DNA of 34,811 nt from a virus. Its lineage: Duplodnaviria; Heunggongvirae; Uroviricota; Caudoviricetes. The stretch is from the IMG/VR virus record IMGVR_UViG_2526164665_000032; one strand, written 5' to 3'. The position numbers were made by a program. Of this stretch, positions 30,001 to 34,811 are shown piece after piece. The first letter of the stretch is position 1. Each line of letters starts with the position of its first letter.

Positions 30001-33000
30001 TGTCCTGAAGGGTGAACAGCGTCGGGTCAGTGGTAGTGCCCGGGTTTCCCTCAAGCGCCGTATCTGGCTCAGGGATGCCGGGCAGTGCTGTCTCTGTGGT
30101 CGTGTGGTTGACCTCTGTGACAGTGAACTCGATCACCGAATTGCACTTCAGTTCGGTGGTGGTAATGAGGAGACGAATCTCTGGACGCTCTGTACCGAAT
30201 GCCATCGCCAGAAGTCAGTCAGTGAAACGGCGAGTGGTATGCCGGACCCGACGCTGCCGGAGGTGTCCGGAGGTCATGGCAGGGCAGACGATATCATCGG
30301 ACTGTGACCCGCCCCGGGGGGGATCATCCGGCGAAAAAAACGATCGCCCCGGACACCGCCCCCCGTCTCATGCAGAGAAAAAATTCCTGTTTCAGGCCAG
30401 TTAACATGTTAACTGGCTGCCCGGGCATTTTTTCGGTTTTTATCTTTATTATTCAGTTTGTTGTGCGAAAAAAATGTTAACTGGCTTTTTCAGCAAATGT
30501 TAACCAGGCAGCAGTTAACATTTGCGGCATGAGACGCCGGGAAAAATGGGCTGAACCATACCCGGCTGAGTGCGTTATGGACCCGGGAGAGGCTGTGCTG
30601 ACAACGCAAAAACGAAAATTTGCGCTGGCGCTCATGTCCGGGAAAACAAACAGCGTCAGCCATTGCCGCCGGTTATTCGGCGAAGACCGCCAGGGTTAAA
30701 GGCTCGCAGCTGGCGAAAGATCCGGAGGTGCTCGCGTTTATAGCCCGTAAACAGTGCGAAACGGTGGAGGTGGATGAGGTTCCTGTTTACCGGCAGAAAA
30801 AATCAGAGCAGGAGGATAAACCCCGTCGCCGTGAGGTGGCTGCAATACCACAGCCGGACGAAAACAATCCGGAGATGCCACCGCCCGCGGTGATGTCTCA
30901 TGGTATTGAATATATGGAGGATGGTCTTCCCGATCCGGTGAAAGCTATGGGGCAGATCCTGGTGGAAAACCTCAGCATTGATCCGAAACTGGCACTGGAT
31001 GCGGCCTGGCGACTGGCGCAGTTCACACACCATAAAAAAGGCGATGCCGGTAAAAAATCGGCAAAAGGTGATGCCGCGAAAAAAGCGGCTAACCGTTTTG
31101 CGGTACCACCACCACCACGACTGGTGGTGAATAACGATAATGAGGGCAACGGATGATACCTGTATGGAGCACGGCCTGCCCGGACTGGGCAGAGCGCCTG
31201 AAAAAGGGGCTGTCGATTATTCCGGCTCCGATTTATCCGGACCAGGCCGCACATGCCCTGGCGATTTTTAAACAACTGCGGATTGTGGATGCACCGGGTA
31301 GCCCGACGTTCGGGGAGTCCTGTGCACCGTGGGTGTTTGACCTGGTGGCGGCTCTGTTTGGCTCCTACGATGCGCAGACCGGTGTCCGCCATATCAAGGA
31401 AGTGTTCATTCTGATACCCAAAAAAACAGCAAGTCCACACTGGCCGCCGGGATCATGATGACGGCGCTGTTACTGAACTGGCGGCAGGCGGCGGGTTACA
31501 CGATTCTGGCCCCGACTGTGGAGGTGGCAGCCAACGCCTTCAATCCTGCCAGGGATATGGTACGACGGGACGATGATCTGGATGACCTCTGTCAGGTGCA
31601 GACACATATCCGGACCATCACCCACCGGGTGACGGACACCACCCTGAAGGTGGTGGCAGCCGATCCGAATACGGTGTCCGGTATCAAGTCCGTGGGGACA
31701 CTGATTGATGAACTGTGGCTGTTTGGCAAGCAGTACAAGGCGGAAGACATGTTACGTGAAGCCATCGCGGGCTTGCCTCCCGCCCGGAAGGGTTTGTGGT
31801 GTATACGACCACCCAGTCGAATGAACCGCCAGCCGGGGTGTTCAGACAGAAACTGCAGTACGCCCGGGATGTGCGCGACGGCAAATTAATGATCCGCACT
31901 TTCTGCCGGTGATATTTGAACACCCTCCTGAAATGGTGGAAAGCGGGGCTCACCTGCTGATGGAAAACCTCGCCATGGTCAATCCGAATCTCGGCTATTC
32001 AGTGGATGAGGCCTTTCTGTACCGGGAGTACCGTAAAGCCCGGGAAGCCGGGGAAGAGCATTCCGGGGCTTCATGTCAAAACACGCCAATGTGGAAATTG
32101 GTCTTGCCCTGCGCTCTGACCGCTGGCGGGGGCTGATTTCTGGGAAGAGCAGGGCAGGCGCATCAGCCTGGACGATATCCTGCAGCGCGCTGATGTGGTG
32201 ACGGTGGGGATTGACGGCGGAGGGCTGGATGATCTGCTGGGGATGTTTGTGATTGGGCGTGACCGGGAGACCCGCGAATGGCTGGGCTGGGGCCATGCCT
32301 GGGCGCATGAAACCGCGGTGGTCCGACGGAAGAGCGAGGCGTCCCGGTTTCAGGATCTTGTTGCCTGTGGAGATATGACCATTGTCCGGCGTGTCGGGGA
32401 TGACACGGCGGAAGTGGCGGAGTATGTGCGTCGCATTCATGAGGCTGAGTTACTGGACCATATCGGTATTGACCCGTCAGGGGTGGGGCAGATTCTGGAT
32501 TCACTGGCGGAAGCCGGGATCCCCGACGGAATTGTGGTGGGGATAAGCCAGGGCTGGAAACTGGGCGGGGCCATTAAAACCACCGAGCGCAAACTGGCTG
32601 AAGGGGTGCTGGTGCATGGTGACCAGCCCCTGATGGCCTGGTGTGTCGGCAATGCCCGGGTGGAGCCTAAAGGTAACGCCATTCTTATCACCAAACAGGC
32701 CAGTGGACGGGGAAAAATTGACCCGCTGATGGCGCTGTTCAATGCGGTGTCCCTGATGTCCCTGAATCCGGAACCGAAAAAGAAAGAATATGCGGTTTTT
32801 TTCATATAACCCTGTTCACACTGTAACCATCACGAACCGCTCCGGCGGTTTTTTTATTTTCAGGAGGCTGATGTGACTCTTAAACGGGCCTGTTCCCTGC
32901 TGACGGTGAAATCCTTCAGTGAGGATGAACGGGTGATCACCGGGATTGCGTCAACGCCTTCTCCGGATCGGGATGGTGACATCCTGGAGCCGGAGGGCGC

Positions 33001-34811
33001 GGAGTTTGGCAGTGCGATCCCGTTTCTCTGGCAGCATGACCATTCCCGCCCGGTGGGGCAGTGTACGGTACGCCGGGTCAGCGAAGGGCTGGAAATCACG
33101 GCAACACTGGTGAAGCCCGTACCGGATATGCCGTCGCAACTGGCTGCCCGGCTGGATGAGGTCTGGGCGGCCATTAAGACCGGGCTGGTCAGGGGGCTGT
33201 CCGTGGGCTTCCGTCCCCATGAATACACCTTTCTGGACGGAGGCGGACTGCATTTTCTGCGCTGGGAACTGATGGAGGTGTCTGCCGTCACCGTGCCCGC
33301 GAATGCGGAATGCACCATCCGGACCATTAAATCTTACGACCGCCCGTTTTCTGCCGCGTCCGGCAACCGGAAACCGGTGGTGAAAATCGCATCTTCTGCC
33401 GGCGCTGCGGCACAGTCAACAACCGTTTTTCATAAGGAAAAGACCATAATGAATATTGGCGAACAGATTAAAAGTTTTGAAAACAAGCGTGCAGCGCTGG
33501 CAGCCTCCCTTGAGGAGGTCATGACCAAAGCCGCAGAGGAAGGGCGCACGCTGGATGTGGAGGAGGAAGAGCACTACGACAACACCGCAGCGGAAATCCG
33601 TCAGGTGGATGCGCACCTGAAGCGCCTGCGTGAACTGGAAGCCGGTAAGGCCGCCACGGCGCAGCCGGTGAAACAGGCCGTACGGGAATGTGGCCGCGGT
33701 GGCTTCTGCGCCGGTGATCCGTGTGGAGCAGAAACTGGATAAGGGGATTGGCTTCGCCGCTTTGCCAAATCGCTGGCTGCGGCTAAAGGCGTCCGATCTG
33801 AAGCCCTGGAAGTGGCCCGTCGTCAGTATCCGGATGACAGTCGTCTGCATCATGTCCTGAAATCGGCAGTGGGCGCGGGGACCACCACGGATCCGCAGTG
33901 GGCAGGCAGCCTGTCTGAATATCAGGAATACGCACAGGACTTTATTGATTACCTGCGTCCGCAGACCATTATCGGGCGATTTGGTCAGGGCGGGATCCCT
34001 GCACTTCGTCAGGTGCCATTCAATATCCGCGTGCACGCCCAGGTGTCCGGCGGTGCTGCCGGCTGGGTGGGTGAGGGTAAGGCAAAACCCCCTGACGAAG
34101 TTTTGATTTTTGAATCCATCACCTTCAGTCATGCGAAGGTGTCGGCCATTGCGGTACTGACGGAAGAATTGATCCGTTTTTCCAGTCCGGCTGCTGATGC
34201 ACTGGTCCGTAATGCGCTGGCGGAAGCGGTGGTGGCGCGTCTGGACACAGACTTTGTGGACCCGAAAAAGCGGCGGTGGCGGATGTCTCCCCGGCGTCCA
34301 TCACCCATGATGTGAAGGGCACGGCATCAACCGGTAACCCGGATGCGGATGCCGAGGCCGCGTTTGGTCCAGTTTGTGACGGCAAAATCTGCAGCCCACC
34401 GGTGCGGTCTGGCTGATGTCCAGCACCAATGCCCTGGCGCTGTCCATGCGTAAAAATGCGCTGGGGCAGAAGGAATATCCGGACATGACCTTGCTGGGCG
34501 GGACCTTCCAGGGGCTGCCGGTGATTGTCTCCCAGTATGTGGGTGACCAGCTGGTACTGGTGAATGCACCGGATATTTATCTGGCTGATGACGGCGGTGT
34601 GGCGGTGGATATGTCCCGTGAAGCGTCACTGGAGATGCAGTCTGAACCGACCAGCGACAGCAGCACACCGTCACCGGTGGAACTGGTCTCCATGTTTCAG
34701 ACCGGCAGCGTGGCCATCCGTGCGGAGCGCTGGATCAACTGGCGTCGTCGCCGTACCGCGGCAGTGGCGGTGATCACCGGTGTGAACTACGGAACTGCGT
34801 CCGGTGGCTGA

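Follow-up and report, generated by a model that had tools for sequence, protein, structure and literature searches.

Private single-base frame changes in the terminase and capsid genes of an O26:H11 Stx1 prophage record: probable consensus errors of a draft assembly

The sequence deposited as IMG/VR virus record IMGVR_UViG_2526164665_000032 (34,811 nucleotides, Caudoviricetes; this entire stretch is referred to below as the window) represents an Stx1 prophage whose last three genes are interrupted by a dense cluster of single-base frame changes, which raises the question of whether the prophage carries a defective morphogenesis module or whether the consensus sequence itself is faulty. The affected region, at positions 30577–34811, corresponds to the small terminase (terS), large terminase (terL) and protease/capsid module of Stx-converting lambdoid phages, to which it can be matched over its full length. 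The window is identical in sequence to part of contig AIGP01000024.1 (76,851 bp) of the draft genome of Escherichia coli DEC10A, an O26:H11 strain (GCA_000249995.2); window position 1 corresponds to position 41,900 of this contig. Within the DEC draft accession series, DEC9A–E are represented by AIGK–AIGO and DEC10D by AIGS (PMC5592225).

The evidence presented here indicates that the frame changes in terS, terL and the capsid gene are very probably errors of the draft consensus, as opposed to mutations or a defective morphogenesis module, and that the real genes are most likely intact. The first-pass annotation, made from the sequence alone, had favored sequencing error near a contig end over decay, and this preference is supported by four observations: the contig ends only 141 bp beyond the window end, the indels are private to this assembly, repair of the indels restores the proteins, and three of the upstream indels do not recur in an independent assembly.

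Number, context and privacy of the frame changes

The window was aligned base by base with two references, namely the prophage of strain 2014C-3057 (L005), the closest finished genome, which is 100.0% identical to the window over its first 25 kb, and that of O26:H11 str. 11368 (L003). This alignment identified 17 single-base indels (12 deletions and five insertions) and 17 substitutions in 30577–34811, compared with eight indels (positions 7321, 9619, 9649, 14742, 15323, 21510, 22363 and 30316) and four substitutions in 1–30576. The indel density is thus 4.0 per kb in the end stretch versus 0.26 per kb in the preceding 30.5 kb, a 15-fold difference, and the conditional binomial probability for the end stretch versus the upstream sequence is 1.1e-10 for indels and 1e-12 for substitutions. 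The cluster reported in the first-pass annotation is therefore real, although its count of at least nine frame changes was too low, as was its estimate of about four for the preceding 30 kb. The end stretch matches 1,263 E. coli records, with three to five copies per O26 genome; the best identity is 99.2%, which is exceeded by no complete genome. Its 4,235 bases compare with 4,241 or 4,242 in almost every full-length match listed, and the exceptions carry an IS629 insertion; being shorter than nearly all of these matches, the window has undergone a net loss of bases.

All three genes are located on the plus strand. In intact form, terS (30595–31156; Pfam Terminase_2) encodes 187 amino acids, terL (31153–32809; Pfam TerL_ATPase and TerL_nuclease) encodes 553 amino acids, and the third gene (32873–34811; Pfam Peptidase_S78 and Phage_capsid) encodes a prohead protease/HK97-type major capsid fusion of 645 amino acids; in the list of open reading frames (ORFs) of the window, each is shattered into many short ORFs. 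The terS gene is broken by adjacent deletions at 30647 and 30648 (A5 to A4 and A4 to A3) and, when read unrepaired from the annotated start, terminates after 34 amino acids; a third base is missing at 30589, 6 nt before the GTG start and within the GGAGGAGG ribosome-binding stretch. Five single-base deletions (31420, 31767, 31883, 32059 and 32125) divide terL into six frame segments, and nine indels are found in the capsid gene (deletions at 33681, 33682, 33757 and 34265; insertions at 34092, 34104, 34107, 34368 and 34384). After repair, TerS is 100% identical to WP_000958402.1 and the capsid protein is 100% identical to WP_000173033.1, while TerL differs from WP_001341975.1 only by C338R, R346Q and Y367F. 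PF03592, PF03354 and PF20441 score above the cut-off both in the intact references and in the window fragments, in the order terS then terL; the reference head protein, a single product of 645 amino acids, contains PF04586 at residues 48–152 and PF05065 at residues 386–635, and the window fragment 32873–33742 retains PF04586. These Pfam matches and the identity of the repaired TerS and capsid proteins bear out the initial description of the translated pieces as conserved terminase and HK97-capsid sequence in the correct order.

None of the 17 indels is present in any of 21 comparators, comprising 11 sequences and ten further genomes that were obtained through a widespread esterase protein, and two exact strings bearing the indels had no match in IMG/VR or in the GTDB representative genomes. 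In a collection of approximately 15 billion proteins, a 204-amino-acid TerL fragment of the window occurs on one contig only, whereas the intact reference TerL occurs on 988 contigs, and in the public collection the broken capsid ORF (289 amino acids) has a single occurrence, on AIGP01000024.1 itself. Fifteen of the 17 substitutions are alleles that are seen in other phage copies, and the remaining two are private. A selection check on the reconstructed ORFs, as suggested in the first-pass annotation, showed that 11 of 14 changed codons are synonymous (p = 4e-5 versus 25% expected) and that TerS and the capsid protein are unchanged from the references, so that, as judged from codon comparison, the substitutions look selected and not decayed. 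Natural decay should produce lesions inherited across strains and random substitutions accompanied by a minority of indels; here, 0 of 17 indels is shared, and 17 indels stand against two private substitutions, a ratio that is foreign to any natural mutation spectrum. Taken together, the private changes in 30577–34811 amount to 19 in 4,235 bases (about 0.45%), which is roughly the error level of raw pyrosequencing reads.

Every breakpoint placed in the first-pass annotation had been assigned to a short homopolymer. The link with homopolymers is significant, since 11 of the 12 deletions are found where the same base occurs twice or more in succession (p = 0.003) and seven where it occurs three or more times (p = 0.002), but it is weaker than claimed: six of the 17 events fall in runs of only 2 bases and two (32059 and 34368) fall in no run. 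Three of the proposed sites proved exact (A8 to A7 at 31420, CCC to CC at 33757 and A6 to A5 at 34265). The event described as GGG near 31790 corresponds to the loss of one G from a GG pair at 31767, and another deletion shortens A4 to A3 at 31883; the one placed in G5 at 32128 is a deletion in the preceding GGG at 32125, the G5 run being intact. Runs of at most 5 bases account for 15 of the 17 events in the end stretch versus one in the upstream 30.5 kb, where seven of the eight indels lie in runs of at least 6 bases and affect 7 of the 55 such runs present. A change of length in 7 of 55 homopolymers within DNA that is nearly free of substitutions is implausible as biology. Because its excess lies mainly in runs of 1–5 bases and in non-homopolymer events, the end stretch looks like sequence of raw-read quality and not like the product of pure long-homopolymer miscalling.

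The events are also unevenly distributed within the module. An island of 1,555 bp (32126–33680, plus strand) is free of indels and contains 10 substitutions, and a block of 293 bp (34092–34384, plus strand) contains all five insertions together with one deletion. All five insertions are among the last six of the 17 indels (p about 0.001), a local flip of the error sign that fits a consensus built from few individual reads.

Onset of the errors at a multi-copy repeat

In finished O26 genomes, the morphogenesis module of the Stx1 prophage is common to other resident lambdoid prophages. Comparison with two such paralogues, L013 from strain 8479 and L014 from 2014C-3057, delimited a stretch at 30234–34811, running beyond the window end, over which the identity to other lambdoid prophages in O26 genomes is 99.9% or higher. 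The early and lysis genes of L013 are unrelated to those of the window, and homology begins at 29766; 25 sites between 29769 and 30233 distinguish L013 from the Stx1 copies, after which no difference occurs until 32764 apart from the length of a G-run at approximately 30315. Over approximately 30240–34245, L014 differs from the Stx1 copy by two homopolymer lengths and three sites. All of the dense errors fall within the 30234–34811 repeat. They begin with the indel at 30316; the previous difference in the window is at 25612 and is followed by 4.7 kb without any difference. With the last paralogue-distinguishing site at 30233 and the first error at 30316, the onset of the errors matches the entry into the repeat. 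On the basis of these comparisons, the error-dense stretch covers the same part of the contig as the exact multi-copy repeat, and the poor consensus in the cluster is attributed to the prophage becoming such a repeat at this point.

This coincidence suggests how the errors could have arisen. At approximately 30240, the Stx1 prophage passes into the packaging and head module, of which each O26 genome has three to five nearly identical copies. Since reads are not uniquely placeable in an exact repeat, the assembler would have extended the unique Stx1 contig by approximately 4.7 kb into the repeat and then stopped. The consensus of this extension would rest on few or ambiguously placed reads and would keep roughly raw-read error levels. 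Frameshifts that are possibly sequencing or assembly errors have been noted in other DEC draft genomes (PMC5592225), and homopolymer errors are known to persist in repeats (PMC8812927). The window thus resembles the residual indel errors described for draft assemblies within repeats and near the ends of contigs (PMC8812927, for long reads; suspected in PMC5592225) in that the errors are single-base, lie mostly in mononucleotide runs, coincide with non-unique read placement, are restricted to a single assembly and give rise to false pseudogenes. It differs from them in that long-homopolymer errors persist in the unique part of the contig as well, where they affect 7 of the 55 runs of 6 or more bases, which implies that the baseline quality of the DEC10A draft is modest everywhere. 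For a record that comes without its reads, the diagnostic is that the error density jumps exactly at the point from which the prophage can no longer be told apart from the related prophages that share its genome.

The first indel of the dense stretch affects a poly-G tract (30309–30315, plus strand) between the HNH gene and terS, which sits where the co-resident prophages turn identical. This tract is G7 in the window and in YYZ-2008, G8 in the O26 Stx1 copies, G10 in L014 and G13 in L013; its length varies naturally, and the indel at 30316 may therefore be genuine. A comparable site is the A8 run of terL, which is A7 in the window at 31420 and A9 in L014, where terL (3820–5482 of that locus; NZ_CP027387.1, 3222819–3224481) is annotated as frameshifted; this run is a hot spot of slippage or miscalling. 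With regard to the limits of the record, the window edges coincide with gene boundaries, its start lying exactly at the end of the wrbA coding sequence and its end on the capsid stop codon.

Upstream indels and an independent assembly

Seven of the upstream indels (7321, 9619, 9649, 14742, 15323, 21510 and 22363) lie in homopolymers and break the genes for Ea22, an AAA ATPase, cII, O, Q and stxA. The AAA ATPase gene carries a −1/+1 indel pair 30 bp apart, and the break in stxA is a T6 to T5 change at about codon 10. All seven are absent from every reference covering the site in question (all seven sites in L005 and in a further reference, L012; the last four in L003). An independent check was provided by the assembly NKEP01 (GCA_002462745.1), in which int is interrupted by the same rare IS600 insertion as in the window (see below) and which is identical to the window over 1,395 and 7,872 bp, except that it does not contain the indels at 7321, 9619 and 9649; this check covers these three indels, in the upstream sequence, only. 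The absence of all three from NKEP01 implies that some homopolymer indels of the DEC10A draft are false even where the sequence is unique. Accordingly, the breaks in stxA, Q, O, cII, Ea22 and the AAA ATPase gene are probably false. The suggestion in the first-pass annotation that the O, Q, Ea22-like and stxA breaks shape how the whole window should be read is well founded, given that these breaks are absent from the covering references and that the indel at 7321 also has no support in NKEP01.

The same assembly supports one lesion. An insertion sequence, IS600, is inserted in the prophage integrase gene int at 1315–2586, flanked by a 3-bp target duplication (GTG), and splits int into parts encoding 205 N-terminal and 263 C-terminal amino acids. 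In the closest finished genome, IS600 is located elsewhere in the prophage, at approximately window position 6034, and strain 8479 has no IS600. The contigs NKEP01000057.1 and NKEP01000100.1 of NKEP01 break at both IS600-int junctions, and because an independent assembly breaks at the same junctions, the lesion is regarded as real, alone among those seen in this prophage.

Alternative explanations and implications for the record

Several points weigh against attributing the frame changes to the draft consensus. Low depth at the affected positions is deduced and not taken from reads, and NKEP01 can be compared with the upstream sequence only and not with the terS-capsid stretch. A repeat should have a high raw depth, so that the assembler must have placed most of the repeat reads elsewhere. 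Furthermore, finished genomes contain lone frameshifts in this module that look genuine (a portal gene of 2,585 nt in all O26 references and the A9 run in terL of L014), and a minority of the 17 events, especially those in the A8 run and the poly-G tract, could be real.

The alternative that survives best is itself a variant of the artefact explanation and offers no biological alternative: the repeat would be collapsed or chimeric and not simply of low depth, and reads from a divergent co-resident prophage would have been mixed into the consensus, giving rise to substitution patches and some of the indels. It concerns primarily a set of substitution patches in terL (31700, 31712, 31713, 31745, 32069, 32156–32161 and 32184–32188; overall 31700–32188, plus strand), the alleles of which all come from one terL class that is approximately 95% identical to the window (L020, L021, L022, L024 and L025) and are interleaved with O26-type alleles at scales under 20–60 bp. 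Segments of 1,555, 205 and 346 bp were used as queries against 5,426 complete E. coli genomes, and this mosaic was present in none of approximately 2,940 copies, the best matches being 97.6% over 205 bp and 99.1% over 346 bp; likewise, none of three repaired TerL variants had an exact match in the collection of approximately 15 billion proteins. In principle, the patches could equally be due to admixed reads or to genuine micro-conversion, as short natural conversion tracts between lambdoid prophages would have the same appearance. An origin in mixed reads is favored by the non-homopolymer deletion at 32059, which lies exactly on a GA/AG site at which the two classes differ and at which the allele is swapped, and the insertions at 34368 and 34384 are situated among sites that vary between paralogues. 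However, only 13 of many class-separating sites are switched, all of them within 490 bp, and two paralogues from related finished genomes do not carry the patch alleles. A contribution of admixed reads is therefore proposed tentatively, as a possibility that falls short of an even chance.

Genuine decay, in which a cryptic Stx1 prophage of DEC10A would truly have accumulated frameshifts in terS, terL and the capsid gene, is very improbable. The disruption of the integrase by IS600, which is also found in the independent assembly, could have left the prophage immobile and free to decay, and in finished O26 genomes a lone frameshift does occur in the portal gene, while one paralogue has another in its terL. 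Nevertheless, the ratio of indels to private substitutions is far removed from what natural mutation produces, the great majority of the substitutions are known alleles and synonymous, the repaired TerS and capsid sequences are identical to functional proteins, and not one indel is shared with any of the 21 comparators. In addition, the damage begins exactly at the repeat boundary, near the end of a draft contig, and upstream indels of the same assembly are contradicted by NKEP01. In degraded lambdoid prophages of enterohemorrhagic E. coli (EHEC), as in the window, the integrase can be interrupted by an insertion sequence, and relatives carry single frameshifts in the portal gene or terL; in contrast, their finished references have at most one frameshift per gene, shared among strains, whereas the window has up to nine per gene, none of which is shared. 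Even less credence is given to a module that is truly riddled with 17 frameshifts, possibly through error-prone repair or repeated faulty gene conversion among co-resident prophages. Finally, biological slippage, through a mismatch-repair-deficient host or through programmed or phase-variable homopolymer frameshifting, has a negligible probability: although most events lie in mononucleotide runs and the A8 run of terL and the poly-G tract vary in length among natural copies, a mutator acts genome-wide and mainly on long runs and would add many transitions, whereas here the excess lies in runs of 1–5 bases, is confined to 4.2 kb and is accompanied by only two private substitutions, and 17 shifts in three genes are beyond any known recoding mechanism. 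Programmed frameshifting and a mutator origin were both rejected because of how many events there are, how they are distributed and which run lengths they affect.

If the frame changes are consensus errors of the draft, as is concluded here, it would be wrong to regard the window as a defective Stx1 prophage. Errors of a 2012-era draft assembly are the most likely source of the apparent pseudogenes of terS, terL and the capsid gene. The interruption of stxA is not to be relied on, and it would be unsafe to draw conclusions on toxin production, inducibility or prophage decay from this record. The element shares its gene order and integration site with the O26:H11 Stx1a prophages integrated at wrbA (11368, Stx1a_10314, LC744xxx; Pankowvirus relatives YYZ-2008 and phage 2851), to which it is 99.9–100% identical over the first 25 kb and, after repair, identical in TerS and the capsid protein; it differs from them in the IS600 insertion in int, the 25 single-base indels and the private terL mosaic.

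Two further observations were made in related prophages. The portal gene, downstream of the window, is annotated as "frameshifted" (2,585 nt) in L003 (24454–27038), L004, L005, L012, L013 and L014, that is, in Stx1 copies as well as paralogues; it is a pseudogene in Stx2a_WGPS4 and is intact, at 2,586 nt, in YYZ-2008. This pattern could represent a shared real frameshift or a recoding site. In L019 (14067–21938; JBHJLZ010000001.1), a related Stx1 prophage, the capsid, portal and antirepressor genes are present in fragments, which suggests that the same kind of consensus error has occurred in a different genome.

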